The translations under genes and the position numbers were made by a program. Shown here piece by piece: positions 5,997-49,365 of a stretch of DNA of 55,883 nt. Under the pieces are notes generated by a model. That model saw nothing but the letters and a program-made list of their open reading frames with translations. It was not told where the DNA came from and made no database searches. The stretch's first letter is position 1; every line of letters begins with the position of its first letter. The stretch comes from a virus. Lineage: Duplodnaviria > Caudoviricetes. Where the stretch lies: IMG/VR virus record IMGVR_UViG_3300037961_005406, positions 1-55,883 of that record, one strand, 5' to 3'.

Positions 5997-7848
5997 CCAA
6001 ACAGAATCAGATTGGAAAAGGCCTGAAAGTTATCCTGACTTATCAGATAGATCTATCATAGCAGTTGATTTAGAAACTAGAGATCCAAATATAAAAACTA
6101 AAGGACCTGGTTGGGCTACAAAAGATGGAGAGATAGTTGGTATTGCTGTAGCTGCTGATGGTTTTAAAGGATACTTTCCTATAGGACATGAAGCTGGTGG
6201 TAACATGGATAAAGAAATTACTTTGAAATGGTTCAAACAGTTAATGGAAAACAATGTAGATAAGGTATGCCACAATGCTTCTTATGATATTGGTTGGGCA
6301 AGATCTTTAGGTATAAAACCTAACGGTAAAATTTATGATACGATGATTGCTGGTGCATTAATTAATGAAGATAGATTTAGTTATTCTTTAAATGCATTGT
6401 CTTTTGATTATTTAGGCGAAGTTAAATCAGAAGCACAGCTAAAAGAGAAAGCAGAGGAGTGGGGACTAGATGCTAAACAAGATATGTGGAGATTACCTGC
6501 AGGTTATGTTGGTCCTTACGCTGAACAAGATGCTGAACTTACACTTAAACTTTGGAATAGATTTAAAATAGAAATACAACAACAAAATCTAACAAATATA
6601 TTTAATTTAGAAACAGAGTTAACTCCTATTCTTATAGAAATGAGAGAGCATGGAATAAGAGTAGATTTATCAAAAGCTGATGAACTTAAAAAAAATTTTA
6701 TAAAAGAAGAGAACAAGAGATTAAAACAGATAAAAGATATGAGTGGTCATGACGTTGAGATCTGGGCTGCTGTATCAGTTGCAAAAGCATTTGATGCTTT
6801 AAAAATTCCATATGAGAGAACTGCAAAAACAAAAGCACCTAGTTTTACAACTAATTGGTTACACAACTGTCCACACCCTTTAGCTAAATTAATTAGAGAA
6901 ACTAGAGAAATGAATAAGTTTCACTCTACATTTATTGATTCAATACTTAGATATGAACATAATGGCAGGATTCATGCAGAGATTAATCAATTAAAATCTG
7001 ATTCAGGTGGTACAGCCACAGGTAGATTATCTATGAGTAACCCTAATTTACAGCAGATTCCTGCTAGAAATAAGGAGTTTGGTAAGCATATTAGAGCTCT
7101 TTTCTTGCCTGATGAAGGAAAAAGGTGGGGTAGCTTCGATTATAGCCAACAAGAGCCTAGGCTGGTGGTACACTACGCATCAAGCGTAGATCAGGGTTTT
7201 GAGGGCTCCTATGAGCTTTTAAAGGCCTATGAAAACGATAATGCAGACTTTCACCAGGTTGTAGCAGAAATGGCTGATATACCTAGGTCACAGGCTAAAA
7301 CCATTAATTTAGGCATGTTCTATGGCATGGGAAAGGCCAAATTATCGGCAGAACTAGGTATTGATATAGAACAGGCTAAAAGTATCTTAAATGCTTATAA
7401 TGAAAGAGTGCCTTTTGTTAAGATGCTATCTAATAGATGTATGACTACAGCAGATAAAAAAGGATGTGTAGTAACTATAAAAGGCAGACATTGTAGATTT
7501 GATCGTTGGGAACCTAAGACTTTTGGTATACACAAATCCATGACTAGAGAAGAGGCAGAAAGTAAATATGAACGAGGTATGATTAAAAGAGCCATGACAT
7601 ATAAGGCCTTAAATAGATTGATCCAAGGATCAGCAGCAGATCAGACTAAACAAGCTATGATTAACTGTTACAATAAAGGCCACCGGCCACTACTACAAAT
7701 ACACGACGAATTGTGTTTTAATATAAACAAAGAAGAAGACATAGACGAAATTAAATACGAAATGGAACATTGTTTAGATGACGTGCCTTTAAAAGTGCCT
7801 AGCAAAGTAGATCTTGCTCTTGGGATAAATTGGGGAGAAGCTACATAA
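5974..7848 (+). CDS. polA: Family A DNA polymerase with 3'-5' exonuclease domain
   Basis: ExoI DLET, ExoII HNASYD, ExoIII YAEQD; TGRLS..PNLQQIP; motif A DYSQQEPR, motif B RSQAKTINLGMFYG, motif C IHDEL. Confidence 0.97.
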   Translation: MTTELVFNQTESDWKRPESYPDLSDRSIIAVDLETRDPNIKTKGPGWATKDGEIVGIAVAADGFKGYFPIGHEAGGNMDKEITLKWFKQLMENNVDKVCHNASYDIGWARSLGIKPNGKIYDTMIAGALINEDRFSYSLNALSFDYLGEVKSEAQLKEKAEEWGLDAKQDMWRLPAGYVGPYAEQDAELTLKLWNRFKIEIQQQNLTNIFNLETELTPILIEMREHGIRVDLSKADELKKNFIKEENKRLKQIKDMSGHDVEIWAAVSVAKAFDALKIPYERTAKTKAPSFTTNWLHNCPHPLAKLIRETREMNKFHSTFIDSILRYEHNGRIHAEINQLKSDSGGTATGRLSMSNPNLQQIPARNKEFGKHIRALFLPDEGKRWGSFDYSQQEPRLVVHYASSVDQGFEGSYELLKAYENDNADFHQVVAEMADIPRSQAKTINLGMFYGMGKAKLSAELGIDIEQAKSILNAYNERVPFVKMLSNRCMTTADKKGCVVTIKGRHCRFDRWEPKTFGIHKSMTREEAESKYERGMIKRAMTYKALNRLIQGSAADQTKQAMINCYNKGHRPLLQIHDELCFNINKEEDIDEIKYEMEHCLDDVPLKVPSKVDLALGINWGEAT

Positions 7849-8036
7849 TGCCTTCTAAATTAGATGACTTAGCTCTAGGTAAATGTCCTCATTGCGATAC
7901 CGTTACAACTTTTATACCTACAAGAAAACCAGAAATTTACATTTGTGATTATTGTGAACAGAAAGTTAGACAACATGTAAATGGAAAAGTGCATTGGTAC
8001 AAATTCAGCGAAGTACCATTAGGAAAGTTTGATTAA
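7848..8036 (+). CDS. Zinc-ribbon protein
   Basis: CPHC...CDYC; TAATG coupling to the polA stop. Confidence 0.7.
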   Translation: MPSKLDDLALGKCPHCDTVTTFIPTRKPEIYICDYCEQKVRQHVNGKVHWYKFSEVPLGKFD

Positions 8037-8240
8037 ATAAAATACTAAACCAGATCCAAGTATAAATATTTGAGGAACAAAATTTAATAAAATACTTCCC
8101 TCTCTCCATTTAATACCAACTATTGTCCATAAAATAGCACCAATAAAATGAACTATTACACCCAATGGATATACATCAAAAGAATGTAAACAAATTGCTG
8201 TTAAGATTACAGTTGCAGCTGTGTATTTTAAAAATATCAT
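8019..8240 (-). CDS. Small membrane protein
   Basis: Three hydrophobic segments; ATGA overlap with the upstream oxygenase gene. Confidence 0.6.
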   Translation of the reverse strand: MIFLKYTAATVILTAICLHSFDVYPLGVIVHFIGAILWTIVGIKWREGSILLNFVPQIFILGSGLVFYLIKLS

Positions 8241-8818
8241 TTGAAGAAAATTACTACATTTAAAACTATTCTTATACCAGATTTTATTGGATTTGCACTT
8301 GCATGAAAATGGTTTTTTATAATTAAAAGTTTGTTTGCTTTTGGCTTTATTTTTTTCATTACAGTCAATAATTTAAATTTATCTTTGTATCCTTCATTAA
8401 AAACAACTGTATCTCCATCACTATTATTTAAATATAACAACAAAGAAATATGTTTTTCATCATTGTCTACATGAGGCATGTTGTGTACATCTTTAGTTTG
8501 TATCTTATTATTATTTAATAGTAAATTTATTTTTGCTTTATGTATATAACCCTCAATATTATTATCTTTCATAAGTTTAAGAATTATTGGAATAAAAATT
8601 TCTGCATAAGGTGAATTAATTTTTTTATCTAAAACCAAACCATGAGATAGTTGTGGAGTAATAAAACCGTTTTTAATTGGAAATATTGTATCTTCTATAC
8701 GTGTATATTCTCCTGAATCTAGTCCTAAAAAATAAGGAAAGTTGTCTTTGACGACCAATTCATACATTTGATCAAAAGATTTTTTATCTACAGCATTTTC
8801 AATAATTTTTAGAGACAT
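8237..8818 (-). CDS. 2OG-Fe(II) oxygenase
   Basis: PHVD, LLYLNNSDGDT, distal H (HAS) and R (RIVLN). Confidence 0.85.
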   Translation of the reverse strand: MSLKIIENAVDKKSFDQMYELVVKDNFPYFLGLDSGEYTRIEDTIFPIKNGFITPQLSHGLVLDKKINSPYAEIFIPIILKLMKDNNIEGYIHKAKINLLLNNNKIQTKDVHNMPHVDNDEKHISLLLYLNNSDGDTVVFNEGYKDKFKLLTVMKKIKPKANKLLIIKNHFHASANPIKSGIRIVLNVVIFFK

Positions 8819-8863
8819 GAATAGCCTAGGATATTATATGAAAAAAAACAAAATGCTAGTCTA

Positions 8864-9070
8864 TTAACCAGCTTTATCTAAAAGACCACTCTTTGCATCT
8901 TCTACACTTTGATCATTGATCTTAGTTCGAAGTTCTTTGATCTTTATGTCGATCCACTTCATATCAGGAGTTACTCTGCCCTGAGACAGTGCTTGGTTCG
9001 CCCACTTGGACTCCAACTGAAGTTTCTCCGAGATTAACTTTTGTAGTTGCATCTCTATCAACCTCCTCAA
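8864..9070 (-). CDS. Hypothetical protein
   Basis: Coiled-coil-like ORF with a GAGGAGG RBS near its start; overlaps the upstream ORF. Confidence 0.55.
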   Translation of the reverse strand: MRRLIEMQLQKLISEKLQLESKWANQALSQGRVTPDMKWIDIKIKELRTKINDQSVEDAKSGLLDKAG

Positions 9071-9242
9071 AGGTTAGAAAAAGAAAGTTAGGATCATAAA
9101 GTCCTGCACCATCTTTTTCGGTTAACTGCCCAGAATCATAACTCGCACTAAAAGATTCTAAAGCAGCTTTATCGTCGCTAGCCTCTATAGTTTCATCCAA
9201 ACGAATATCTTTATAGTTGGCTTGGATACGATAAAGTTTCAT
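8964..9242 (-). CDS. Hypothetical protein
   Basis: ATG ORF downstream of a minus-strand TTGACA (about 9280-9285). Confidence 0.6.
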   Translation of the reverse strand: MKLYRIQANYKDIRLDETIEASDDKAALESFSASYDSGQLTEKDGAGLYDPNFLFLTFEEVDRDATTKVNLGETSVGVQVGEPSTVSGQSNS

Positions 9243-9317
9243 AAGAATATCTTATCAAATTTTTTAATGTAAAACAAGTTGTCAATAGGTGCTAAAAGTG
9301 TTGAAAACACTAGCTTT

Positions 9318-9530
9318 TTAGATGGTGGTAGTAGGAGTGCAATGAAATTTTATAAAAATATTGTATTTATTTACATCATCTGAGCCTATTTCTTTCATTT
9401 TATTTATAGATTCTTCATACCCAAAAATAAGGCAATCATACTGACTATTAAATGTTTCTGTCCATTGATACGGATCCATACATGTACCTGCGACCTGGGA
9501 GCAAATTATTAAAGTTAATAATATTTTCAT
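9318..9530 (-). CDS. Small exported Cys-containing protein
   Basis: N-terminal hydrophobic stretch MKILLTLIIC and four spaced Cys. Confidence 0.6.
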   Translation of the reverse strand: MKILLTLIICSQVAGTCMDPYQWTETFNSQYDCLIFGYEESINKMKEIGSDDVNKYNIFIKFHCTPTTTI

Positions 9531-9537
9531 TTAAGTA

Positions 9538-9575
9538 TTGACCTATCTTATTTATCATCTATATAGATAAGATAA
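9538..9575 (+). promoter_or_regulatory. Promoter with overlapping inverted repeat (putative operator)
   Basis: TTGACC at 9538, then TATCTTAT...ATAAGATA dyad; upstream of the AGGAG-led ORF at 9613. Confidence 0.5.
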
Positions 9576-9612
9576 ATATAAATTAATATTAACTAATTAT
9601 ACAGGAGAAAAT

Positions 9613-9891
9613 ATGAACAGTAAAAGTGTCAGCTTCTTAAAACTTGTAAAAGAAGTAGATGAAATACTTAGTAAGATGCATTCTAAAAGTTCTGATGGTG
9701 AACCTATACAACCTGGATCGGATCATTGGAATGAAACAAGAGATAGATTAATGAAAGTACATGTAGGTGGTGAAACTAGATTTATGACCTATCCTATGAA
9801 TTGGAGTTTATCAGAACATTTAATGGTTGATGAATTAAACAGCAGACCTGATGTGCATCCAATGCATGTAAAACTAAAAACAGAATTGTAA
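9613..9891 (+). CDS. Hypothetical protein
   Basis: RBS AGGAG, 92 aa. Confidence 0.7.
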   Translation: MNSKSVSFLKLVKEVDEILSKMHSKSSDGEPIQPGSDHWNETRDRLMKVHVGGETRFMTYPMNWSLSEHLMVDELNSRPDVHPMHVKLKTEL

Positions 9892-10004
9892 TGACAGATA
9901 GTATTGGAATAGCATTAATAATTTTATTTATTTTACTTTTCCCTAAATTTTTTTTAGGAACTGTAGTTGCAATTATTGCATTTTTTATGGGAGTAACAAT
10001 ATGA
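9891..10004 (+). CDS. Small membrane protein (37 aa)
   Basis: MTDSIGIALIILFILLFPKFFLGTVVAIIAFFMGVTI; start/stop coupled on both sides. Confidence 0.6.
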   Translation: MTDSIGIALIILFILLFPKFFLGTVVAIIAFFMGVTI

Positions 10005-10225
10005 CAAAAGATAGACACGCAGATACAAATAACTTTTTAAAAAAATTAAGACGTAAAGATTGGAAAGACAGACGTGTAGCAGCTATAAATAAAATTAGTG
10101 AAAAAAAAGGTTGGAGTTGTAGTGAAAACAATCCTTACTTTGAACAATATACAGTAATTATGAATCCAAATATTAAAACAAAACAACAATGCAAAGAGGA
10201 GTGTAGAAAAAATGGATATAAATAA
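10001..10225 (+). CDS. Hypothetical basic protein
   Basis: ATGA coupling, GGAG RBS. Confidence 0.6.
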   Translation: MTKDRHADTNNFLKKLRRKDWKDRRVAAINKISEKKGWSCSENNPYFEQYTVIMNPNIKTKQQCKEECRKNGYK

Positions 10226-10421
10226 ATGGAAATCAGTAGCAGTAAAAAAAGAAACACACACATTACTTACTGCACTTTGTGGAGAAAAAGAACGTAACCC
10301 TGCTAGGATGATATCTAAATTAGTAAAAGATTATGCTGAATATCAGGCAAAGAAAAAAGGTATGCCTACAGAAAAATATATTGCGACTTTATTAAAAAAG
10401 AATGCGACTAAACAGAGATAA
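10212..10421 (+). CDS. Ribbon-helix-helix DNA-binding regulator
   Basis: KSVAVKKETHTLLTAL...RNPARMISKLV fits the RHH beta-helix-helix pattern. Confidence 0.65.
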   Translation: MDINKWKSVAVKKETHTLLTALCGEKERNPARMISKLVKDYAEYQAKKKGMPTEKYIATLLKKNATKQR

Positions 10422-10902
10422 ACTTCACTCAATAAAAAATGATACAGTTATAGATATTACTGTATCTAACAGACCAGGTTTATATTTTTTATTTAATCAA
10501 GAATATAAATTAATCTATATCGGAGAAAGTTTATTTCCATTAAGTAGAATACTAGATCATTATTGGAAAGCATATTTAGATGGAAAAGATAAAAAAGGTA
10601 TTGGACCTGTATTTTCTTATTTTAGAATAATTAGTGTAGATAATGAAACTAGAATTAGACAACACTATGAAAAACGTTACATAAAACATTACAATCCAGA
10701 GCATAATCATGGAGCAAACAGAGCACCATATAGTTTAACTTGTAAACAAATAAAAGCTCACATAATGATTTATGAAATGTTTTTTAAAAACATGAGCTGG
10801 TACAGATACATAAATGATGAAGTATTAAAAAAAATGTCAGATGGATTAGCACATAAAAAGAAATTAAGAAAATTAAGAGAAAAAAAGAAAACTTGGAGAT
10901 GA
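10402..10902 (+). CDS. GIY-YIG nuclease-family protein
   Basis: PGLYFL...LIYIGES...R..H...E...I..YNP.HN pattern. Confidence 0.75.
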   Translation: MRLNRDKLHSIKNDTVIDITVSNRPGLYFLFNQEYKLIYIGESLFPLSRILDHYWKAYLDGKDKKGIGPVFSYFRIISVDNETRIRQHYEKRYIKHYNPEHNHGANRAPYSLTCKQIKAHIMIYEMFFKNMSWYRYINDEVLKKMSDGLAHKKKLRKLREKKKTWR

Positions 10903-11207
10903 AAAAAACATTATTAAAAATAAATAACATGAAAAGGTTCTGTAAGTGGCTAGATCAAACTAGTGTGCACTTAGATATTGTAAGAACTTTACTATCTCAC
11001 CCATGGGTTATGTCATGGAAAGAGAGAAAAGGTATAGAAAAGCGACTAAAACAAACCCAAGACAGAGATTATTTTTGTTTCAAAAGATCTAAAACTAGGT
11101 TAAGATGGCGTAACATATACACACGTTTTCATCACTATGAGAAAGCGACCGAACTACTAACATATGTAAGGAAACGTTATGCCAGGCAAAAGAATAAAAA
11201 AAGATAA
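10893..11207 (+). CDS. Hypothetical basic protein (ATG at 10899 is an alternative start)
   Basis: ORF in the middle of a translationally coupled operon. Confidence 0.55.
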   Translation: MEMKKTLLKINNMKRFCKWLDQTSVHLDIVRTLLSHPWVMSWKERKGIEKRLKQTQDRDYFCFKRSKTRLRWRNIYTRFHHYEKATELLTYVRKRYARQKNKKR

Positions 11208-11433
11208 TCTAGAACAAGCCCTAGAAATACTTGCAGCTAATCTAAATTCTAAAGATTATTCCAAAGTAACAGGAGTTATGTCCATGTTATTTATAGGCCA
11301 TCAGTTTAATTTAAGTGGTGATGGCTTTGAATTTATTAATTTAGCTGTAAAAATTAAGAAAGAATCTCATAAGAAAACATTTAAAAAAGCTTTACATGGC
11401 AATGTAATTAAGCTAAAACCTAGATCGTCTTAG
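11179..11433 (+). CDS. Hypothetical protein
   Basis: RBS AAGGA; C-terminal NVIKL motif. Confidence 0.6.
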   Translation: MPGKRIKKDNLEQALEILAANLNSKDYSKVTGVMSMLFIGHQFNLSGDGFEFINLAVKIKKESHKKTFKKALHGNVIKLKPRSS

Positions 11434-11464
11434 GACGAACTCTCTTTTTTTTAGTTAATAGAGT

Positions 11465-11498
11465 AGGGGATGTGAGCGGGAGACTGCAATCATCCCCT
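11465..11498 (+). other. Intergenic stem-loop with GAGA tetraloop
   Basis: AGGGGATG/CATCCCCT outer stem enclosing GCGG-GAGA-CTGC. Confidence 0.6.
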
Positions 11499-11553
11499 TA
11501 ACTATTGACTTTAACTTTAATACAACATATTCGTGTAGTTATGGAGCTACTAC

Positions 11554-11985
11554 ATGAACATATCAGCGAAAATTCTAAAAATTATGGGTTTGAACGTAGC
11601 TGAGAAGTTAATAGAAAACACACCAAACCCTGACGTACGCATCTGGCGAGCTGTAATTGCGCTTGCTTTGGAAGATGTAATGATCACAAATCAGAACAGA
11701 ACTGAATCTGTTTTGAAAGGTGATGCTCATGATTGGTTTTGTAGCAACAGTGATGATTTTAAAATGGTATGCTTTCAAGCAGAATTAGATCCTAGGTTTG
11801 TAAGAGAAAGGTATCTTGATGCACTAGAAAAAGGTATAATTAAATTTACAAGAAAACAAAATTTGAATATAAGTTATACAAAAGAATATGAAAAACTTAG
11901 ACGAGCCACTACGAAGGAGCAGCGAAGGAAGCACAACGCAGTTATTGATAAGTTGCGGAAAGCTATATTTGAGTGCACCGATTAA
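11554..11985 (+). CDS. Conserved phage hypothetical protein
   Basis: WRAVI.LALED...AHDWF...F.MVC..A.LDP pattern; GGAG RBS; upstream TTGACT. Confidence 0.7.
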   Translation: MNISAKILKIMGLNVAEKLIENTPNPDVRIWRAVIALALEDVMITNQNRTESVLKGDAHDWFCSNSDDFKMVCFQAELDPRFVRERYLDALEKGIIKFTRKQNLNISYTKEYEKLRRATTKEQRRKHNAVIDKLRKAIFECTD

Positions 11986-12040
11986 TAGTATTGAAAGACA
12001 GTTTTATAAATTTTTATATAAAAAAATAAAATTAAGATAT

Positions 12041-12508
12041 TTAAATTAAAGATTTTTCCCATCTATATTTTTGAACTGAATGAACTTTTGGTTGCCACTC
12101 TCTATTCTTTCTTGTTGTCCAACCTGTACCTTCTGAAAAAGCTCTTGTTGTTTCTTTGTGTGTATATCCTGCAGCTTTTAAACTAATCCCAGATTCTGTT
12201 TCTAATGTATAAGTTAAAATTTTAGTGCCACCCATTTCTTTCCATATCCTAGCACATGCACCATATAAGAAGCTGTTAACATTTTTAATACCTTCTGTGC
12301 ATGTTCTTACAATTTCTCCTGTATAACCATCATCTAATTTTCTTGCTACAGGTCTACCAACAATTGCTACACCAATAATTTGATTGTCATCATCAACAGC
12401 TGCAATACAAAACTTACAGCCAACTACAGTTTTACTATGTCTGTGATGTTTTCTGACATACTCATTTGCTAATCTTAATGTATAAGGTTTAATCCTCACA
12501 GGCCACAC
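12041..12508 (-). CDS. XF1762-family / Mom-like GNAT-fold protein, putative DNA modification
   Basis: ANEYV..HHRH, GVAIVGRPVAR.LDDG, E..R.CT, SFLYGA, TYTL..E.G.SL.AAG motifs. Confidence 0.7.
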   Translation of the reverse strand: MWPVRIKPYTLRLANEYVRKHHRHSKTVVGCKFCIAAVDDDNQIIGVAIVGRPVARKLDDGYTGEIVRTCTEGIKNVNSFLYGACARIWKEMGGTKILTYTLETESGISLKAAGYTHKETTRAFSEGTGWTTRKNREWQPKVHSVQKYRWEKSLI

Positions 12509-13308
12509 ATACCTTCACACTCTTGATTGAATAAATCTCCTTGAGTGTCATTTTTAAATTTAACTTCATCTAAAGGTACACAAGATCTGTGAACATAGTT
12601 TTTTACTTTTGGATTATGTTTACGCATTTCTTTATCGAAGAACACAGCTTCTTTAAATTCGTTAGGTCTCTTATCTCTCATTTCTATCCAGAAATTATCA
12701 TCGTGAAACGGACACCCGATACAGGCCGACTTCACAGGTACATTGAAACCTTTACCTTCATACCATTTTAAACAATCCTGTCTGGTCATTTTCTTTTCTA
12801 ACAATGGCCATCTGTTTTCTTGCCACCAAAACCTAGATGGTTTCATACGCATTACTTCATCCATAGATATACCAATCCAAACCTCAACCCATTGATTTTT
12901 CTTCATTTTTTGTCTTGGTTTGTAGCCTAATATTTCTCTTATTTTCTTTGCAATTGGAGTTATTTTATATTCTCTTGTGCATTGTCTTCGACCCATTCCT
13001 TTTTTACCTTTTTCATTCAAAGTATAAAATGGTGCTGAAGCGAATTGATTACCACCTGGAGACAAAGCTTTTAAGATGTCTTTGTCTAGATCTCCTTTTT
13101 TAGTTATGTGCACAGGATAAGATAGTTTTGTTTTTAAATAATTTAAATGATCTATTACTGTAGATGGTTCCCAACCTGTATCTGCGAATACAGCTGCATC
13201 AGGTTTAACACCAAATGCTCCTTGGTCTGCCATCAAGGCCATAGTGCTAGATTGTACACCAGCTCCTAACGATAAGATTCTTAGACTTGGTTCTTTGTCA
13301 CGTTCCAT
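12496..13308 (-). CDS. PAPS-reductase-like / adenine nucleotide alpha-hydrolase protein, Cys-rich
   Basis: PP-loop-like SLGAGVQS, FADTGWE, CT..YKI.PI, GIS.DE..R, KSACIGCPF, terminal CEGMC. Confidence 0.8.
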   Translation of the reverse strand: MERDKEPSLRILSLGAGVQSSTMALMADQGAFGVKPDAAVFADTGWEPSTVIDHLNYLKTKLSYPVHITKKGDLDKDILKALSPGGNQFASAPFYTLNEKGKKGMGRRQCTREYKITPIAKKIREILGYKPRQKMKKNQWVEVWIGISMDEVMRMKPSRFWWQENRWPLLEKKMTRQDCLKWYEGKGFNVPVKSACIGCPFHDDNFWIEMRDKRPNEFKEAVFFDKEMRKHNPKVKNYVHRSCVPLDEVKFKNDTQGDLFNQECEGMCGL

Positions 13309-14237
13309 ATTGCTCTTCCTATTTCTTCTGCGATTTGCGGGACGATAGAGTTTCCCAATCCTTTAAGTCTGTATACCCGCCCGGGTACCCCATTAGCCAC
13401 TCTACCCACATCGGGTTCAGTGCGCCACCAACTTTCTCCCCTAGATTCCCCTTGCCACGATCTATCTTGCTGTCCTTGTACATGAACTCCCTTGGAGTTG
13501 GCCACATTATGTTCGGATGTGCTACTTGATCGTTTAAACTGATCGGCATTTTCTTGTTCACTTTCATTTGCATTCTTTCCTTCGAACTCGCTCCCCTGTC
13601 GCAATGTGCGTCTGGTGTTCTCCATAACTTCATTGTCGCTGGATCCACTTGTTCTCTCAGGTTCGATGGACGAGATCTTCCCTTCCTTTGACCTTGCATC
13701 AGCTTCTTGGTTCCTTCTTCTGATCTTGGAGGTAAGTGATCCATTGTGTTTGGAGTAGCCCACAATCCAGACTCTTTCTCTTCTATGGGGCGCGCCGACG
13801 CCTGCAGCTGGAATAATAAACGCTTGGACTTCGAAGCCTTCACTTTCCAGGTCAGTGCACACTGTTTCGAATACCATGCCGTCTTGGATGTTAATAATTC
13901 CTCTGACATTCTCTGCAATAATCCAGGTGGGTCTGACTTCTTTAATGACTCTGAACATATCTGGCCAGAGATATCTGTCGTCATTGGTACCTTTTTGCTT
14001 GCCTGCAACACTGTACGGTTGGCAAGGAAAGCCTCCTGTGAGGATGTCAATGGGTTCTTTGATGTCTTTCGCTTCCAATTTTTTAATATCATGATGTATT
14101 GTAACTCCTTTCCAATGTTTTTGCAGCAATAGTCTGCAGTATGGGTCAACTTCACAGAAGCCTACAGTTGTAAAGCCCACTCGTTCTAGAGCTAAACTAA
14201 ATCCACCAATACCGCTAAATAAGTCTAAATGATTCAT
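13281..14237 (-). CDS. C5-cytosine DNA methyltransferase, main (alpha) chain
   Basis: Motif I LDLFSGIGG, IV GGFPCQPYS, VI ENV, VIII HRRERVWIVG, X LGNSIVPQ; no motif IX in this frame. Likely start is MNHLDLF at 14237. Confidence 0.92.
   Translation of the reverse strand: MNHLDLFSGIGGFSLALERVGFTTVGFCEVDPYCRLLLQKHWKGVTIHHDIKKLEAKDIKEPIDILTGGFPCQPYSVAGKQKGTNDDRYLWPDMFRVIKEVRPTWIIAENVRGIINIQDGMVFETVCTDLESEGFEVQAFIIPAAGVGAPHRRERVWIVGYSKHNGSLTSKIRRRNQEADARSKEGKISSIEPERTSGSSDNEVMENTRRTLRQGSEFEGKNANESEQENADQFKRSSSTSEHNVANSKGVHVQGQQDRSWQGESRGESWWRTEPDVGRVANGVPGRVYRLKGLGNSIVPQIAEEIGRAIWNVTKNQV
13319..13984 (-). CDS. Alternative-frame MTase (beta) chain: three WxTP modules plus motif IX-like segment
   Basis: The frame is open for 278 codons inside the MTase gene. 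It contains WATP, WRTP, WPTP and LNPMWVEWLMGYPGGYT. Candidate ATG at 13984 is preceded by AAAGG. Confidence 0.75.
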   Translation of the reverse strand: MTTDISGQICSESLKKSDPPGLLQRMSEELLTSKTAWYSKQCALTWKVKASKSKRLLFQLQASARPIEEKESGLWATPNTMDHLPPRSEEGTKKLMQGQRKGRSRPSNLREQVDPATMKLWRTPDAHCDRGASSKERMQMKVNKKMPISLNDQVAHPNIMWPTPREFMYKDSKIDRGKGNLGEKVGGALNPMWVEWLMGYPGGYTDLKDWETLSSRKSQKK

Positions 14238-14240
14238 CTG

Positions 14241-14436
14241 TGACACTGTTTTTATAGGTTTTACGTAATTTGTCAATCTATATAAGATATTTCTACCTAA
14301 AACACTCTACACAGGACACCAGAATGTCTGACATTTGTGACATAGACCTCTTTTTAGACTATTTACATTGATACTACTTACTTATTTGATGTCACAAACA
14401 CTTTTATTCTGTGACATACACTGACACTAGTGACAC
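14241..14436. repeat. Cluster of (G)TGACA(C/T) repeats in the divergent region upstream of terS
   Basis: Copies at about 14241, 14329, 14337, 14411, 14422 and 14430, one inverted copy at 14389, and a GGACAC variant at 14314. Confidence 0.7.
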
Positions 14437-14505
14437 TAACCACTTATGGACAAAACACCTAAACTTGGATACAGTCTTAATTGAGTTAAAAATATCTTAT
14501 TACAA

Positions 14506-15000
14506 ATGGCTGGAAAAAAGAACACTATAAAAACGATGCATGATCTGACTGCGAAGCAGAGAAAGTTTGTTGATATCTATGTGGCCAATTACGGATTAAT
14601 TAGTAAGACAGAAGCAGCTAAGCAAGCTGGATATGTAGCTAAAGATCCACATACGATTGCATCTAAATTAACTAACCCAAATAGAAACCCCCATGTTGTA
14701 AGATATTTAGAAAAAAGATTAGCTGTTGAAAGAAATAAATATGCTAATCCGTTACGTTCACATAAAAGATTTGAGAAGTTTGGTGATGACGCTGCAAAGA
14801 AAAACCAATTCGCTTCAGCAATCAATGCAGAATTTAGATCTGGCCAATTGGCTGGAATGTATGTTGATAAAAAAGAAATTACAAATAATACTCTGGAGGG
14901 AATGTCACGTGAACAACTTGAAAAACGTTTATCAGAACTCGAAGCCAAAATCGGGGAAGGTAAAAACATCATTAACGTCACGCCAACAGAGGATGGTTAA
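14506..15000 (+). CDS. terS: Terminase small subunit
   Basis: LTAKQRKFVDIYV...TEAAKQAGY...ASKL..P.V N-terminal HTH typical of TerS. Confidence 0.85.
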   Translation: MAGKKNTIKTMHDLTAKQRKFVDIYVANYGLISKTEAAKQAGYVAKDPHTIASKLTNPNRNPHVVRYLEKRLAVERNKYANPLRSHKRFEKFGDDAAKKNQFASAINAEFRSGQLAGMYVDKKEITNNTLEGMSREQLEKRLSELEAKIGEGKNIINVTPTEDG

Positions 15001-15071
15001 AACAGATAAATGGATGGTTGTATTTAATGAAATACATAATTCACATTTATCTATGAATATAGGAAAGGTAG

Positions 15072-15413
15072 ATGTTAAAACAGATGAAGAAGAAATATAA
15101 AGTTGGTAAAACTTATAAAAAAACAATTCCTTTGAATTTTAAAAAGCTCGGTAAAAATATAGAAGATTATCCTTTTGTAGAAATAAATTGGGCTGACATT
15201 GAAGGAGATGCAGGTTGGTCTGATACAAAAAGTTTGTTAAAAAGTAAATTACCCATTTGCGTTTCTAAAGGTTATTTGGTATCACAACGTAATGGAGTTA
15301 CAAGAATATTTACAGATTATATCAAAGCGAAAGACAATGATACTTTTGAAAATATTGGTAACACCACAATTATTCCAACTTCAGTTATTCAATCAATAAA
15401 GGTATTAGGCTAA
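15072..15413 (+). CDS. Conserved phage hypothetical protein
   Basis: V.I.W.DI....GW...C.S.GYL...IP..VI..I motif. Confidence 0.75.
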   Translation: MLKQMKKKYKVGKTYKKTIPLNFKKLGKNIEDYPFVEINWADIEGDAGWSDTKSLLKSKLPICVSKGYLVSQRNGVTRIFTDYIKAKDNDTFENIGNTTIIPTSVIQSIKVLG

Positions 15414-15619
15414 TGGATATGATAATTTATCAAGATGGTGTTTACGAACTAATTACTGTAACAAAAGATATGTTTGAAGGTGCTATCAAACCAGAAATAG
15501 TAGATTGTTTTAGCTTGTGCGATATACTTAGAGATAAATTTACTACCTACCTTGAGGACATTAACAGACATGTTATGAAAGAAGGTGGTGCATACTTTTA
15601 TGGCTGTATGTGCAGCTAA
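15413..15619 (+). CDS. Hypothetical protein
   Basis: TAATG coupling; C..LC...GC.C. Confidence 0.6.
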   Translation: MDMIIYQDGVYELITVTKDMFEGAIKPEIVDCFSLCDILRDKFTTYLEDINRHVMKEGGAYFYGCMCS

Positions 15620-15634
15620 CTTGTCTTATATCAA

Positions 15635-16051
15635 ATGGCATTAAAAAAACGTGAATCTTTACTCTTTCAAAGAGTACGTAAACATATAAAAAAAGCGCAT
15701 TTTACAAGGATAGAAAGCTCAACAATACAAGGTATACCTGACGTACATTGTGTGATGAATAAGCGTATTTTTTGGATTGAATTAAAGTCTACTGAGGACA
15801 AGTTTCCGATACTGTCTAAGTTTCAAATGGCATGGTGTTATGAATACCAAAGACATGGTGGCCATGTTTTCGTGCTGCATCAGGCCCTCTCGCAGAGGTC
15901 TCTGAATCTTTACAAAGTGGCCGGTGAGGTGGATCCCTCGTCTCGTTCCTCGTTTTCTCGTTCCCTCGTTCTCGTTTATAGCTCACCGGACCCACCTCCG
16001 CCGCTGGCCTGGCAGGAGCTGGCCGCTGCGCTTCAGGAAAAAAATGGTTGA
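15635..16051 (+). CDS. PD-(D/E)xK nuclease (VRR-NUC / Holliday junction resolvase-like)
   Basis: ES...RIES....GIPDV....FWIELK...LSKFQ..W motifs. The C-terminal part is encoded by the first CTCGTT array. Confidence 0.8.
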   Translation: MALKKRESLLFQRVRKHIKKAHFTRIESSTIQGIPDVHCVMNKRIFWIELKSTEDKFPILSKFQMAWCYEYQRHGGHVFVLHQALSQRSLNLYKVAGEVDPSSRSSFSRSLVLVYSSPDPPPPLAWQELAAALQEKNG

Positions 16052-16075
16052 CACCATTTCCTCGTTTGATATAAG
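16048..16075 (+). promoter_or_regulatory. Sigma70-like promoter
   Basis: TTGACA-16nt-TATAAG preceded by an A-tract (UP-element-like). Confidence 0.6.
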
Positions 16076-16081
16076 GAATTT

Positions 16082-16207
16082 GTTAATGACAAAGGTGAGG
16101 AACAGCTCTGGCATCCGTCCATGGAGAGATGCAGTGTGGCGCAACTCCTAGCTTATTTGTTTATTTATCATCTGTCATACCACGGGCTAGTCCTTGCTGG
16201 CCCGTGG
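16082..16207 (+). ncRNA. Candidate structured small RNA (alternatively a 21-aa leader peptide)
   Basis: Follows a promoter; ATGACA..GGTGA pairs with TCATC-TGTCAT; inner GCATC/GATGC stem; closing CCACGGGCTAG/CTGGCCCGTGG hairpin. Confidence 0.4.
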
Positions 16208-16435
16208 CCTTAATCAAAACCTCGTTTTCTCGTTTCCTCGTTTAGCAATAGTTCTAGGACATAGCTCACCGTTAGCATCTGGTGCCCAGCAGCCGTCGGA
16301 AGCTGATGCGTGTGGATCCTCGTTTCTCGTTTAGAAATAAGGCTTTTGTTTACAGGTGATTACCTGTGAGCTGGGACCCAGATTTTTCCACCAGAATCTC
16401 CTGAAGCCCTGCTGAAAAAAAAATAAATTTTCTTC

Positions 16436-16465
16436 TTGACTTCTATCCCATGAGGTCTTATGTGT
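16436..16465 (+). promoter_or_regulatory. Repeated early-type promoter TTGACTTCTATCCCA, copy 1
   Basis: Identical 15-mer also at 17438; preceded by an A/T tract. Confidence 0.65.
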
Positions 16466-16471
16466 ATGTCT

Positions 16472-16546
16472 ATGATTATAATATATACAACAGCACTGTA
16501 TCTCCTGATCCTTTTTGGGTCAGGAGTGGTGTCATTTAACTTTTAG
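16472..16546 (+). CDS. Putative 24-aa hydrophobic peptide overlapping a strong hairpin
   Basis: MIIIYTTALYLLILFGSGVVSFNF; contains CTCCTGATCC-TTTTT-GGGTCAGGAG. Confidence 0.4.
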   Translation: MIIIYTTALYLLILFGSGVVSFNF

Positions 16547-16553
16547 GAGAGCT

Positions 16554-16850
16554 ATGCCAAAGACAGATGAACGAGAAAAAGATAATGTTGTTTTCACGTG
16601 TAAGAAGCACGGAAAAGAAACATACTTCAAAATTAAAAAACTTGAGAAGATGAGAAAGATGCGTGAGTACGTATACGTATGGTTTGACGTAGATGGTCTT
16701 ACTGAAAAGATGTGGGTGCGAATCATTTCGGGTGACCGTAAAAAAGGAATGGGTAAATTGGATAACGTTCCAAGCATTCTAGATCATTTAAGGTTAGGAG
16801 ATCTAATCAGATTCGAAACTGACAAGGAGGGAATAACATGGGGACTTTAA
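16554..16850 (+). CDS. Hypothetical early protein
   Basis: AGGAG RBS before MPKTDE; EKMWVRI...GKLDNVP resembles a DUF2314-type motif. Confidence 0.7.
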   Translation: MPKTDEREKDNVVFTCKKHGKETYFKIKKLEKMRKMREYVYVWFDVDGLTEKMWVRIISGDRKKGMGKLDNVPSILDHLRLGDLIRFETDKEGITWGL

Positions 16851-17257
16851 AAATACGCGATTGGCTTCTCGCTGGAGAAGCCAAAGAATATTTTACAATT
16901 AAGGACATTGCTGAGCACGGCTGCGAAGGAGGTGTTTCAGGTTTGATTTACTACAAAGAAACCGCAAGGTTTCACGACGACAATGAGGAAGAGATTTGGG
17001 ATATCATTTCTCGGTTTGCCGATGACAGCGGACAGACATTGATGCAATACCTTTCCGTGGTCGCGAAGGATGCCAGGACTCTCACCGGCCTGAAGAACTC
17101 CCTCGTTTGGATTGCCGTTGAGTCGATAGCTCAAGACATTGATGAAGAGCGCCAGACAGGTGGCCAGCAGCAGCGGACGGGAACGAAAAGCGAATTCATC
17201 AAGCTAATGGAAAAAGGCGAGGTTGATGATAGCTATAATATGCGAGGCAACAAATAA
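16838..17257 (+). CDS. Acidic helical early protein (HGCxGGxSGLIYY family)
   Basis: AGGAGG RBS; IAEHGCEGGVSGLIYYKET..FHD..EEEIW...KNSLVW.AVE. Confidence 0.75.
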   Translation: MGTLKIRDWLLAGEAKEYFTIKDIAEHGCEGGVSGLIYYKETARFHDDNEEEIWDIISRFADDSGQTLMQYLSVVAKDARTLTGLKNSLVWIAVESIAQDIDEERQTGGQQQRTGTKSEFIKLMEKGEVDDSYNMRGNK

Positions 17258-17437
17258 TGTTTGTATTATTTTTACTAATATTTGCCTGTATTCTGTGGCC
17301 TGAAGTTACCTCGTTCTCGTTTTGGATCGTGGTCTCGTTGGTAGTTATGGCTTTCCAGGGAGCTGGCCAGGCGCAGCGGCTGAGCCCAGCAGCTGTCGAA
17401 CCTGTACCTGCTTTTACTTTTTTAGAAAAATATTCGT

Positions 17438-17465
17438 TTGACTTCTATCCCACGTATGATAAGAC
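17438..17465 (+). promoter_or_regulatory. Repeated early-type promoter TTGACTTCTATCCCA, copy 2
   Basis: Identical 15-mer to 16436; followed by an AGGAG RBS and ATG at 17494. Confidence 0.65.
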
Positions 17466-17493
17466 ATATGTAACTAAAAAAAAGGAGAACAAG

Positions 17494-17886
17494 ATGGGAT
17501 TAGATCAATACGCTCACCTGCGTGGGCAAGAATACGAATGGGACGCCAACGATGATAATCAATTCTATTGGCGAAAACATGCGAGACTTCAACAGTTCAT
17601 GGCTAAAGAACACGCAAAACAAAACCCCGTTGAAAAAAATGAGAATGATATGGGATTAGGTTTTAATGGTGGACCGGTGTACATAACTGAAGAAGTAGTG
17701 AGAAAACTAGAAGAGGCGATAGAAAATGATTATTTTGATTATTTTGCTCCTGATGGTTTCTTTTGGGGACAACAGTTCCAAGAACAGCAGGTGAAAGAAT
17801 ACAAAGCACAGGATAAAAAGTTTTTGCAATGGTGTAAGGACATGATTGCGAAAAAGAAAGTTGTTGAATACCATTGTAGTTGGTAG
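17494..17886 (+). CDS. Conserved phage early protein (MGLD...YWRK family)
   Basis: AGGAG RBS; MGLDQY...FYWRKH..LQ.F...GFFWG...Y..SW. The in-frame upstream extension from 17257 may be a separate or fused membrane segment. Confidence 0.8.
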   Translation: MGLDQYAHLRGQEYEWDANDDNQFYWRKHARLQQFMAKEHAKQNPVEKNENDMGLGFNGGPVYITEEVVRKLEEAIENDYFDYFAPDGFFWGQQFQEQQVKEYKAQDKKFLQWCKDMIAKKKVVEYHCSW

Positions 17887-18033
17887 GCGACGACCTGCGA
17901 GGTCTTTTGTCAGAGTAGCTCCTGTTTAGACCTCGCTTTTCTCGTTTCTCGTTTGAAACGCAAACTTAATTTTAACTAATGAAGTTACCAGGATCTGGCC
18001 AGCTGCAGTTCACGGAAACTTCAGGAAAGGAAT

Positions 18034-18216
18034 GTGATGACAGATAAAGCTGACCAATGGATTTGGTATAAAGATAGAACTAACAGAACAAGAAAAATTA
18101 AATTGAAAACTTTATTAAATCGTGTAAATTCCATATCAATTAAAAACAAATACTTTTCTACAAGGAGGGAAGCAAATGGCAGTACAAGATCAAATCGTGC
18201 AGGAAGTGCAAACTAA
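18034..18216 (+). CDS. Hypothetical basic protein
   Basis: AGGA RBS, 60 aa. Confidence 0.5.
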   Translation: MMTDKADQWIWYKDRTNRTRKIKLKTLLNRVNSISIKNKYFSTRREANGSTRSNRAGSAN

Positions 18217-18346
18217 AAATAAAGCGAAAGCTTTTGCGGAACAAAAAGAAATGCGAAAGGAATGTAAAGACTTCATTGAGAAGTGTTCTACTTTTCAGCT
18301 TCAGGAAATTTTTTCCGAAATAAAAAGACTGACAAAGAGGTATTAA
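18176..18346 (+). CDS. Hypothetical protein (56 aa)
   Basis: AGGAGG RBS; MAVQDQIVQEVQTKNKAKAF... Confidence 0.65.
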   Translation: MAVQDQIVQEVQTKNKAKAFAEQKEMRKECKDFIEKCSTFQLQEIFSEIKRLTKRY

Positions 18347-18347
18347 T

Positions 18348-18413
18348 ATGATTGGTTATTTGATAGCTCTCGCTCTCGTTTTTTTCTCGTTGTTTCTCGT
18401 TACCTCGTTTTAA
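18348..18413 (+). CDS. Putative 21-aa hydrophobic peptide encoded by a CTCGTT array
   Basis: GAGG RBS; MIGYLIALALVFFSLFLVTSF. Confidence 0.4.
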   Translation: MIGYLIALALVFFSLFLVTSF

Positions 18414-18657
18414 CCTGTAACCTGGGCAGCTAAATTTTAGCTGCCGAGCCCAGCACCAGATTTTCTTCCTGAATTTTTTAAAATTTTCCTGTGAGGTATA
18501 GGTCGCATTAAGGTCTAAATCTTAATGTGCGTGGCTCTATGGAAGAAATTTTTTTTCAAAATTGGACCAAAATTAAGATTTGCAATTTTTTAAAAAATAA
18601 ATTAATTTAAATACAAATCTAAATTTTTTAGATTAACAACTAACAAAGGACAAAAAC

Positions 18658-19068
18658 ATGACGACACAAAAAGCAAAAAAAGTTCTTTTAGAAAAGAACG
18701 AAAAGCAAGTGTGTAATTCATTTATAGATCAAGCATACTTGTTAACTAAATATCAAACTTTAAAATCGGACACTAAAGAATTAGTAGCTGAATTTTTTTT
18801 AAAGTTAAAACAAAACATAATCATTTTATCTAACACTAGATATATTCAAAAGATTGAAAGAACTCAAAGACGATTTGATAGTAAATCTTTTATTGATTAT
18901 GTTAATGGCAAATCAACAACTGATGAAAAAATTTCATTTAAAGAATTACAAATTCTTTTAAATGGCTTTTATAAACAAATCAAAGTTGTTGAGTTCAAAC
19001 CTTTTGATGATAAACTTGAAAAAGAAAAAATAAAAACTAAAAAAGGAGTAACAACAAATGCCAAATAA
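18658..19068 (+). CDS. Hypothetical early protein
   Basis: AAGGA RBS, 136 aa, follows an AT-rich promoter-like region. Confidence 0.7.
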   Translation: MTTQKAKKVLLEKNEKQVCNSFIDQAYLLTKYQTLKSDTKELVAEFFLKLKQNIIILSNTRYIQKIERTQRRFDSKSFIDYVNGKSTTDEKISFKELQILLNGFYKQIKVVEFKPFDDKLEKEKIKTKKGVTTNAK

Positions 19069-19366
19069 TAACGATAATAACAATAACAATTTGCCCTCAA
19101 TGAGTGTTTTATCTCAAATGATACAAACGCAAATGCAAAACAAAGGACTTGACCAAACTAGAGTGCAATCACTTTTAAATGAAAGTGATAATAACAAGTC
19201 TTTAAATTACCAAATACTGTACAAACTTTTAGAAAGTGCAGTTGAGGAATTTATTTTAATTAACAATGGAAATCCTTTGGCAGATGATTTTAGGAATAGA
19301 GTTGTTAATAAAATGTCAGATGTAGTTAATATGTTGATGGGCAATCAACCCCCAAACAATAGCTAA
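19058..19366 (+). CDS. Hypothetical protein with Asn-rich N-terminus
   Basis: AGGAG RBS, 102 aa. Confidence 0.7.
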   Translation: MPNNNDNNNNNLPSMSVLSQMIQTQMQNKGLDQTRVQSLLNESDNNKSLNYQILYKLLESAVEEFILINNGNPLADDFRNRVVNKMSDVVNMLMGNQPPNNS

Positions 19367-19378
19367 ATAAATTTTACT

Positions 19379-19415
19379 CGTTGGCGTAGTTCCTACGCCA
19401 ACGAAGGCTCTTTTC
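19379..19415 (+). terminator. Stem-loop / probable terminator closing the early gene block
   Basis: CGTTGGCGTAG-TTC-CTACGCCAACG, 11-bp stem just after a stop codon. Confidence 0.6.
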
Positions 19416-19529
19416 CGAAAACTTCTACCTTCACCAATCTCAACCCCCGAACCCCCTTTTTTGCTTGTATTATAGCTGACGCTGGCGCTTTACAATCAAA
19501 TTCACACGTGTATAAACTATAAAATACTT

Positions 19530-27106: not shown

Positions 27107-27325
27107 ATGATAATAGATTATCCATTAATAAAAAGACTTACTGAAAAGAAAATAGACTCCTTAAAAGACACTCTAGTGTATACCGTTGACAATTTAGAGA
27201 AACTTCATTATATTAGAGGACAAATCAAAGGCCTAGAGTCTTTGCTTCAGGATCTTAAAGACCTGCAAGAAAAACAGGAGCAACTAAATGACCAAGAACT
27301 TAGAGACTTCGAAGGAAGTACCTAA
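27107..27325 (+). CDS. Small conserved protein upstream of GroES
   Basis: Y.RGQIKGL pattern. Confidence 0.65.
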   Translation: MIIDYPLIKRLTEKKIDSLKDTLVYTVDNLEKLHYIRGQIKGLESLLQDLKDLQEKQEQLNDQELRDFEGST

Positions 27326-27755
27326 AAGAACCGAAGCGTTACTTGACGCTTATAAATCCAAAGATGAAATCAACGAAACTCAGTTAGATGTTAAAGCTAT
27401 CGAAAGCAATAAAAGTCTTTTAGATAGATTACCAACACCAACGGGTTACAGACTTTTAGTTTTACCGTACGCGGGACCTAAAAAAACTAAAGGAGGAATT
27501 TATCTTGCGGATACTACCCAGGAAACAATACAGATGACTACCGTATGTGCATACGTATTGAAGATGGGGGATCTATGCTACAAAGACAAAGAAAAATTTC
27601 CAGAAGGTCCTTGGTGTAAAAAAGGAGATTGGATAATTTTTGGACGTTATGCTGGATCTAGATTTAAAATAGAAGGCGGAGAAGTTCGTATTCTAAACGA
27701 TGACGAGATAATCGCCAAGATAAACAACCCGGAGGATATCTTGCACGCATATTAA
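27288..27755 (+). CDS. groES: Co-chaperonin GroES
   Basis: PTGYRLLV...KTKGGIYL...GD..IFGRYAGS...EVRILNDDEIIA. Confidence 0.92.
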   Translation: MTKNLETSKEVPKRTEALLDAYKSKDEINETQLDVKAIESNKSLLDRLPTPTGYRLLVLPYAGPKKTKGGIYLADTTQETIQMTTVCAYVLKMGDLCYKDKEKFPEGPWCKKGDWIIFGRYAGSRFKIEGGEVRILNDDEIIAKINNPEDILHAY

Positions 27756-45367: not shown

Positions 45368-45585
45368 GATTTATACAAAATGGAAAAGACGGAAGCTGTA
45401 GAGTAATTTTTTCTGAACAAGAAAAAAAAATAATAAACGAAAAAGGCGAGTTTATGTTAGATGCAATGGCATTAAGACATTTTAGTAATCATCTTATGAG
45501 AATAGTTCATGAATTTTATAAACTATTTCCAGAAGAAATAAAACATAAACAGACTTTTGAGGACTCGGAGTGTGAAGGAAAATAA
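45364..45585 (+). CDS. Hypothetical protein
   Basis: ATGA coupling, AGGAG RBS. Confidence 0.6.
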   Translation: MRFIQNGKDGSCRVIFSEQEKKIINEKGEFMLDAMALRHFSNHLMRIVHEFYKLFPEEIKHKQTFEDSECEGK

Positions 45586-49244: not shown

Positions 49245-49365
49245 ACAAAAATTTGTAAATTTTGTTCCACGTCCGAAACCTCCTAAGAGGCCAAGAAGAC
49301 ATAAAAAAAGACTTAACAAAAGTGAAAAACGCAGTTATAAAAGATATAATAACCAAGGTAGATAA
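49237..49365 (+). CDS. Small Pro/Arg/Lys-rich peptide (42 aa)
   Basis: MARQKFVNFVPRPKPPKRPRRHKKRLNKSEKRSYKRYNNQGR; coupled on both sides. Confidence 0.6.
   Translation: MARQKFVNFVPRPKPPKRPRRHKKRLNKSEKRSYKRYNNQGR

Follow-up and report, generated by a model that had tools for sequence, protein, structure and literature searches.

Three overlapping genes on one strand of a marine phage genome raise the question of whether their products carry out a single DNA modification pathway or are separate enzymes that share a transcript. The genome is the 55,883-nucleotide (nt) IMG/VR virus record IMGVR_UViG_3300037961_005406, which has an estimated completeness of 92% and was analyzed over its whole length (the window). 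A replication module with primase, helicase, and DNA polymerase A genes lies on the plus strand at 2.4-7.8 kb, and a packaging and structural module begins at ~14.5 kb. Between these modules are three minus-strand open reading frames (ORFs) at 13281-14276, 12496-13308, and 12041-12508, with the end of each overlapping the start of the next. They form a 2.2-kb minus-strand unit flanked by plus-strand genes, one ending at 11985 and the other starting at 14506. An earlier note on this DNA had described three overlapping, co-oriented genes opposite to their neighbors, and the ORF coordinates and flanking genes agree with that description. The families it named are also confirmed: the first gene is a C5-cytosine methyltransferase (PF00145, TIGR00675), the second is phosphoadenosine phosphosulfate (PAPS) reductase-like (phrog_424), and the third is an XF1762/Mom-like protein (XF1762_fam, phrog_1384). 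The note's main proposal, that the three enzymes jointly install one modification, is not supported, as the genes assort independently in relatives. This assortment favors its fallback of independent anti-restriction genes at one hotspot. The cassette is probably one transcription unit that stacks three separable counter-restriction modules, each able to work alone.

Two close relatives of the phage have the middle gene without the other two. L148 is syntenic with window positions 6750-19941, in blastn segments that are 74.5-87.5% identical, and L149 is a syntenic sister phage with segments 66-82% identical to the window. Both keep the PAPS-reductase-like gene alone, in the same place and the same orientation. 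The alignment with L148 (L149) jumps from window position 14234 (14277) to 13299 (13308), and a second time from 12500 to 12032 (12049). In L148 positions 13300-14233, which hold the methylase, are replaced by 8 nt, and positions 12033-12499, which hold XF1762, are replaced by 135 nt. In L149 the corresponding replacements are 71 and 12 nt. Because the alignment jumps over both genes, the methylase and XF1762 are precisely absent from these two phages.

Gene neighborhoods in a wider set of relatives also point to independent assortment. Each sample of loci consisted of the best 80 of 521-565 confirmed stretches and is biased to relatives. There were 111 XF1762-centered loci after 143 were merged on identical XF1762 ORFs, and 75 PAPS-reductase-like-centered loci after 80 were merged. 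Among 78 viral XF1762-centered loci, a PAPS-reductase-like gene was found in four and the N-terminal domain of the methylase in eight, and XF1762 was without either partner in 68. Among 29 loci from prokaryote genomes the corresponding numbers were five, six, and 22. Three annotated phages with XF1762 had neither partner by the profiles used, and two of them have other methyltransferases annotated nearby. The 75 viral loci centered on the PAPS-reductase-like gene included 23 with the methylase, three with XF1762, and 50 with neither. The methylase has an alpha subunit and a beta subunit nested within it. Viral loci centered on beta (n = 80) included 19 with a PAPS-reductase-like gene, 12 of them at E under 1e-30, none with XF1762, and 61 with neither partner. 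When both flanks were at least 1.5 kb, the PAPS-reductase-like gene was found in one and the methylase in six of 39 XF1762-centered loci; XF1762 was found in three and the methylase in 13 of 41 PAPS-reductase-like-centered loci; and the PAPS-reductase-like gene was found in 14 of 44 beta-centered loci. In the GenBank phage collection, 32 records have XF1762 relatives and 58 have PAPS-reductase-like relatives. In the matches listed, which cover 32 of 32 and 40 of 58 of these records, both genes are present in Pelagibacter phage HTVC034P alone, and there they are not adjacent. In related marine contigs each of the three genes, alone or combined, occupies one accessory slot that extends from a UvrD-like helicase gene to DUF3310/DNA polymerase A. 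All three families tend to gather at one kind of site, and their common theme is the marking of DNA against restriction.

Several observations weigh against independent modules. The locus counts are not independent events because the loci are related to one another, and absence of a gene applies to the flanks examined because many contigs are short. The three families co-locate more often than a random draw would give. All three genes are found within about 4-5 kb on one contig (L081/L173), in the order methylase-XF1762-PAPS-reductase-like, and in three Micromonospora prophages (L069, L071, L078), where the PAPS-reductase-like gene and the methylase are followed after 1.3 kb by XF1762. A Puia prophage (L066) and L138 also have the trio, with a weak PAPS-reductase-like match. 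The methylase and the PAPS-reductase-like gene adjoin in 24-31% of loci (19/80 and 23/75), in at least six arrangements that involve two PAPS-reductase-like subfamilies, and this recurrent pairing fits a functional link as well as a hotspot. Finally, the stop-to-start overlaps of the cassette genes permit translational coupling.

Cooperation of all three enzymes on one uncharacterized hypermodification is nevertheless highly improbable. It would agree with the recurrence of the trio in another two to three lineages, each time over a few kb, and the three genes are probably co-translated because they are co-oriented and overlapping. However, XF1762 is absent from 80 of 80 methylase-centered loci and from 72 of 75 PAPS-reductase-like-centered loci, and relatives carry each of the three genes singly in the accessory slot. 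Gene order varies wherever the trio co-occurs, and it differs from that of the window in L081, in the Micromonospora prophages, and in the Puia prophage. In addition, the available portion of PMC13219725 describes phage Mu Mom as working without need of a partner enzyme. Because each gene is dispensable for the others and Mom needs no partner, a stack of independent modules is the preferred reading.

The first module is a cytosine methylase encoded in two overlapping frames. The earlier note had called it a split C5-methyltransferase. The methylase assignment stands, but the parts are not consecutive pieces, as the alpha frame is open throughout and beta is nested in its +1 frame. The alpha ORF is open from a TTG at 14276, and its likely start is the ATG at 14237, giving a protein of 318 amino acids (aa) on the minus strand (13281..14237); relatives of alpha begin at the corresponding MNHLDLFSG. 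Alpha matches PF00145 with 190 bits (cut-off 22; about 8e-56, with residues 1-239 at 6.7e-56), TIGR00675 with 166 bits, above the cut-off of 100.65, and phrog_363 over its full length (9.6e-86). Its translation contains FSGIGG, PCQ, ENV, HRRER, and GNSIVP, which we take to be motifs I, IV, VI, VIII, and X. A hydrophilic low-complexity linker of about 100 residues separates motifs VIII and X. The motifs are present in 31 of 34 relatives, and the residues invariant in the alignment are G9, G11, G12, P71, C72, Q73, E109, N110, V111, R153, R155, G295, N296, and P300.

The nested frame belongs to a different methyltransferase family. It is an ORF of 278 codons (13319-14155) on the same strand, read in the +1 frame and contained entirely within the alpha ORF (13281-14276), and it matches phrog_1008 at 2.2e-28. 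The frame is open from 14155, and its true start is uncertain. The ATG at 13984 is a candidate, from which beta would be 221 aa (13319..13984, minus strand); a methionine at MT(T/I)DISGQ is common in relatives, though not universal. The N-terminal part is conserved (SGQxC...LTWK...LFQLQAS), the middle has W-x-T-P repeat modules that vary in number among relatives, and the C-terminus has the pattern LNPxWVEWLMGYPxGYT. The segment LNPMWVEWLMGYPGGYT may correspond to motif IX, by its resemblance to the pattern in M.HhaI. No match to beta was found in Pfam at E up to 10 or among PDB sequences by profile search. By tblastn the beta frame is present in 63 GenBank phage records, with matches that cover at least 80% of the frame in 23 records, and 1769 of 2024 candidate database proteins are related to it at E up to 0.001. 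The annotation of Paenibacillus phage Tadhana includes the two frames as nested coding sequences, and in Lacticaseibacillus phage R23.9 both are open but only one is annotated. A deep-sea Autographiviridae contig (KT997847, 3920-4848) has an intact beta of 195 aa and an alpha in two pieces of 80 and 188 aa, so that either alpha is broken or the sequence has an error. A limited literature search, which is no proof of absence from print, found no description of overlapping-frame phage cytosine methylases.

Fused forms of the two subunits are also present in the databases. Three variants (P0031, P0053, P0096) join alpha and beta in frame, at a junction that differs among them: alpha motif IV runs into beta, alpha motif VIII into later beta modules, or beta into motif X. 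These may be natural single-chain forms or sequencing or assembly errors. Separately, the methylase stretch of the window (13001-14000) has a G+C content of 43.9%, compared to about 27-39% around it, which could reflect dual-coding constraint or foreign origin.

Codon usage shows that selection acts on the nested frame itself. The +1 placement of beta relative to alpha is seen in each of the 34 distinct loci in which both parts were found, and in 78 of 80 further loci from the beta-centered sample. Codon entropy was calculated for alpha columns where the same degenerate residue is present in 70% or more of 31 sequences, after three of the 34 sequences were dropped because they lack the motifs. 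The normalized entropy of conserved alpha residues is 0.714 upstream of the beta ATG (43 columns), 0.478 in the stretch that beta shares with alpha motifs IV-VIII (45 columns; one-sided Mann-Whitney p 5.6e-5), and 0.560 over the beta C-terminus (14 columns; p 0.015). For example, the leucine of alpha D-L-E-S is encoded by TTG or CTG in 30 of 31 sequences, which keeps an invariant tryptophan of beta. A second test used the 420 of 465 sequence pairs that are less than 75% identical. The fraction of identical codons at identical residues was 0.50 before the beta ATG, 0.64 in the overlap with alpha motifs IV-VIII, 0.74 in the linker, 0.57 over the beta C-terminus, and 0.49 after the beta stop. In the linker region, identity between relatives is 45% for beta versus 30% for alpha. 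Thus synonymous variation in alpha is suppressed over the overlap, and beta is the more conserved in the linker.

Structural modeling suggests that alpha and beta assemble into one enzyme. The complex model scored 0.89, compared to 0.01 for the best of three controls. That mark is reached by 58 of 80 solved complexes and two of 110 mismatched pairs, counts that are only rough because the analysis used its own alignments. The runs shared at least 73% of contacts, and the partner had a predicted local distance difference test (pLDDT) value of at least 65. In the model, beta residues 57-60 contact alpha 138-143 in the motif VIII region, and beta 186-210 contact the motif X region of alpha, where the putative motif IX segment packs. 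The alpha linker (164-266) made no confident contact in the complex model. The result may reflect the likeness of the pair to solved single-chain C5-methylases. The whole target-recognition domain appears to sit in beta, which would supply a small domain of this kind together with the motif IX-like segment. The assembled subunits would produce 5-methylcytosine at sites set by the W-x-T-P modules of beta.

Programmed frameshifting from alpha to beta and back to alpha, giving one canonical chain, was also considered and was rejected as the main explanation. The first ~83 residues of beta overlap alpha motifs IV-VIII under their own constraint and contact alpha in the model. Also, both frames are fully open.

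The nested alpha/beta layout is known so far from M.EcoHK31I, a heterodimeric C5-methyltransferase of E. coli whose beta subunit is 176 aa long, compared to 221 aa in the window. According to the portion of PMC2836561 available, M.EcoHK31I (Lee, Kam & Shaw 1995) has beta coded wholly inside alpha in another frame. Alpha contains motifs I-VIII and X, beta contains motif IX, and both are required; beta tolerates loss of part of its N-terminus, and internal start codons are in use (PMC2836561, same portion). The window methylase has the same nested layout, as judged from the published layout. The two systems differ in that the alpha of M.EcoHK31I is said to hold the target-recognition domain too (PMC2836561, as excerpted), while the window alpha has the low-complexity linker there, and in that the window beta has conserved W-x-T-P modules and overlaps alpha motifs IV-VIII.

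The last gene of the cassette encodes a compact Mom-like protein of the GNAT fold. The ORF at 12041..12508 on the minus strand gives 155 aa from a GTG at 12508. The protein most likely starts at the second GTG, at 12499, giving 152 aa, because this codon overlaps the upstream stop as GTGA and relatives start there. It matches the NCBIfam model XF1762_fam (NF045478) with 174.5 bits (cut-off 50), with residues 6-151 on profile positions 2-143 of 143, and it matches phrog_1384, named "Mom-like DNA modification protein," at 1.9e-30. Of 2159 candidate database relatives, 2144 match the family at E up to 0.001. Positions that do not vary in the family include H22, H24, G51-R52-P53, R56, D59, E65, R68, S79, and Y82. 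A literature search for "XF1762" returned 0 papers.

Structural comparison places Mu Mom at the top of the matches to XF1762. The model has a pLDDT of 90 and a GNAT fold, and its best Foldseek match is Mu Mom (8bv8; E 1.6e-8). Mom is also the top match in VIA, with a Z score of 15.8, a root-mean-square deviation of 2.6, and 151 of 155 residues aligned to chain range 37-222. Other GNATs listed by VIA have Z scores of 15.7-14 with at most 139 aligned residues, so generic GNATs score nearly the same Z against the model. An hhalign alignment to Mu Mom places H22, R68, and S79 on H58, R111, and S124 of Mom, with a probability of only 35%. The match to Pfam Mom (PF25680) has 14.1 bits, under the gathering cut-off of 27.1, and spans only positions 3-75 of the 202 in the profile; a precomputed PF25680 match is present in some relatives that are 50-60% identical. 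Searches of PDB by sequence and profile gave no Mom match, and the link is seen in the fold comparison and hhalign only. The C-terminal half of Mom gave no usable alignment to the XF1762 profile, and counterparts of D149, R151, and Y159 were not placed.

Mom is a GNAT that by itself moves glycine from Gly-tRNA to N6 of adenine in double-stranded DNA, making N6-carbamoylmethyl-adenine, as described in the available part of PMC13219725. The same text reports that R111 and S124 of Mom are essential, that H58 is important, and that a helix-turn-helix-like insertion at 175-209 is essential. In the XF1762 family the positions that align with H58, R111, and S124 do not vary, and XF1762 has a two-helix insertion before the last strand, at residues 122-146. 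The proteins differ in size: XF1762 has 155 aa compared to 241 for Mom, it lacks the first ~36 residues of Mom, and its insertion is about 25 aa rather than about 35. Because of the fold match and the alignment of H22, R68, and S79, XF1762 very likely works like Mom, as a stand-alone acyl or aminoacyl transferase. It would add an acyl or aminoacyl group to a DNA base, and by analogy with Mom the target would be N6 of adenine and the donor a charged tRNA.

The middle gene encodes a PP-loop enzyme that is probably an iron-sulfur protein. It lies at 12496..13308 on the minus strand and encodes 270 aa, annotated here as a PAPS-reductase-like/SspD-like PP-loop ATP pyrophosphatase. It matches phrog_424 at 3.4e-47 and the PADLOC SspD model at 1.7e-12 (45.6 bits, residues 11-248; the library has no curated cut-off), and no DndC model was among the defense-library matches listed. 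At E up to 0.001, 4652 cluster representatives match the family. Across 42 aligned members the variant P-loop SLGAGVQS is invariant, as are six cysteines, C110, C179, C196, C199, C264, and C268, the last two within a C-terminal ECEGMCG tail. The model has a pLDDT of 91.9 and the PP-loop/adenine-nucleotide alpha-hydrolase fold. In VIA, PAPS and adenosine phosphosulfate (APS) reductases, TilS, CysD, NcsA, and LarE tie at Z 11.5-12.6, with 7rge at the top (12.6), and Foldseek matches range in E from 4e-6 to 6e-4. Because all PP-loop families tie, the fold does not pick the substrate. The [4Fe-4S] PP-loop transferases TtuA, NcsA, and LarE and the PAPS/APS reductases have the same fold but are 9-17% identical in sequence, with template modeling scores of about 0.4-0.45. 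The only solved sequence relative of the family is PDB 21fy chain C, "PptA" (profile E 9e-4, in the DC...CxGC region); this entry is outside the fold libraries used for comparison, and a literature search found no paper on it. In five viral contigs (L258, L269, L270, L276, L283), the gene located 160 nt upstream of the nested methylase belongs to a second, divergent PAPS-reductase-like subfamily (E 1e-8 to 1e-11).

It is very unlikely that the middle gene is an auxiliary metabolic gene, encoding a genuine PAPS/APS reductase whose role would be to raise sulfate assimilation by the host, with no connection to DNA. CysH has a single catalytic cysteine, within an ECGLH tail, unlike the six invariant cysteines and variant P-loop of this family. 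The Pfam PAPS_reduct (PF01507) score of 21.2 bits is just under the gathering cut-off of 22.5, and the best match in the defense library is SspD. Among 14 relatives scanned, six (P0249, P0275, P0279, P0310, P0356, P0359) are fused to DUF6339, which is at the N-terminus of proteins of about 540 aa, and one (P0340) carries a winged-helix DNA-binding domain. Also, in related contigs the gene is placed constantly among replication and DNA modification genes. On the other side, PHROGs labels the family "moron, auxiliary metabolic gene," and the best structural Z score, tied with others, is to a PAPS reductase. Several phage papers annotate such genes likewise, for example bioRxiv 10.64898/2026.02.18.706556 in its available portion.

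An action on phage DNA or against phosphorothioate-based defenses is more likely. The enzyme resembles SspD and DndC in its SspD-model match, its PP-loop fold, and its conserved cysteines. It differs in that no DndC model matches it and that the family occurs in phages mostly as a lone gene. Also, none of the 62 other window ORFs of at least 90 aa has a PHROG match described as cysteine desulfurase, SspB/SspC, or DndD/DndE, and partners encoded by the host are possible. Phage PAPS reductases lie in anti-defense hotspots according to the available text of PMC13551039, which cites Piel et al. 2022 (Nat Microbiol) for a phage PAPS reductase that evades Dnd. Like the gene studied here, the one of Piel et al. 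is cited as a lone phage gene in a variable region (PMC13551039, available text), and it may be of another subfamily. Oyster Vibrio phage 434O48-1 has a relative that is 30% identical to the window protein. The enzyme would use ATP to adenylate its substrate and then transfer sulfur, and most likely it would act on phage DNA or blunt phosphorothioate-based defenses (Dnd/Ssp).

The recurrent neighbors of the middle gene raise a narrower alternative, a two-step pathway made up of the nested methylase and the PAPS-reductase-like enzyme, with XF1762 acting separately. One possibility is that 5-methylcytosine is made at beta-specified sites and then adenylated and thiolated; another is that the DNA-recognition subunit of the methylase aims a phosphorothioate-type sulfur transfer. 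In tRNA, TtuA thiolates U54 that is already methylated. The two genes adjoin in 23/75 and 19/80 loci, compared to a methylase in 8/78 XF1762-centered loci (10%; Fisher p 0.002, uncorrected for relatedness). The pair is found in several orders and spacings, including the divergent subfamily 160 nt upstream in five contigs, and it also adjoins in the Micromonospora prophages. In addition, the middle-gene fold ties with the Fe-S thiolases NcsA, TtuA, and LarE. Against this, L148 and L149 have the PAPS-reductase-like gene without the methylase at the same site, and within the flanks examined the methylase is absent in 52 of 75 loci and the PAPS-reductase-like gene in 61 of 80. The 63 GenBank phages with beta, 48 of which are named for Paenibacillus, share no organism first word with the PAPS-reductase-like matches listed (10 further first words are outside that list). 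Both genes also occupy an accessory slot in which anti-defense genes pile up. A two-enzyme pathway is therefore unlikely but is kept as a rival because of the adjacency in 24-31% of loci. The more specific proposal that the nested methylase and the SspD-like Fe-S enzyme jointly write a sulfur-containing mark at beta-chosen sites in phage DNA, with XF1762 as a second, independent layer, is quite doubtful.

The region upstream of the cassette, 14238..14505, is a divergent intergenic region defined by its position, between the cassette and a plus-strand small-terminase-like gene, and is presumed to hold the cassette promoter. In L148 the matching stretch directly adjoins the PAPS-reductase-like gene. 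A consensus scan found no minus-strand promoter in 14238..14505. Over 11800-14700, the scan gave six promoter-like sites compared to 9.1 expected and one terminator-like site compared to 1.8 expected, none useful for the cassette.

Other genes in the window include a large set of oxygenase-like paralogs. Six ORFs match PHROGs named 2-oxoglutarate (2OG)-Fe(II) oxygenase or "DNA endonuclease V" (phrog_81, 61, 274), at 8237-8818 on the minus strand and at 33986-34582, 36589-37128, 44229-44819, 45557-46054, and 49365-50021 on the plus strand. This is an unusually large set for a 56-kb phage. There are also auxiliary-gene-like ORFs at 32165-32857 (phrog_3704, "ferredoxin," 1.4e-78), 34579-36114 (tryptophan-halogenase-like, 1.1e-102), 44807-45367 (ferrochelatase-like), and 27288-27755 (GroES-like co-chaperonin). 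ARAGORN found no tRNA or tmRNA gene over window positions 1-55883.

If the cassette is a stack of independent modules, the phage would carry on a single transcript three DNA-marking systems that differ in their chemistry, each gained or lost separately from the others. Once the nested alpha/beta layout is recognized, the annotation of a family of at least 1769 database relatives can be corrected. Because gene callers see one of the two frames, its members are filed as hypothetical, truncated, or frameshifted. If the nested methylase and the SspD-like enzyme do act jointly, they could be writing either a thiolated 5-methylcytosine or a phosphorothioate directed to specific sites, and such a DNA modification would be one that has yet to be described.

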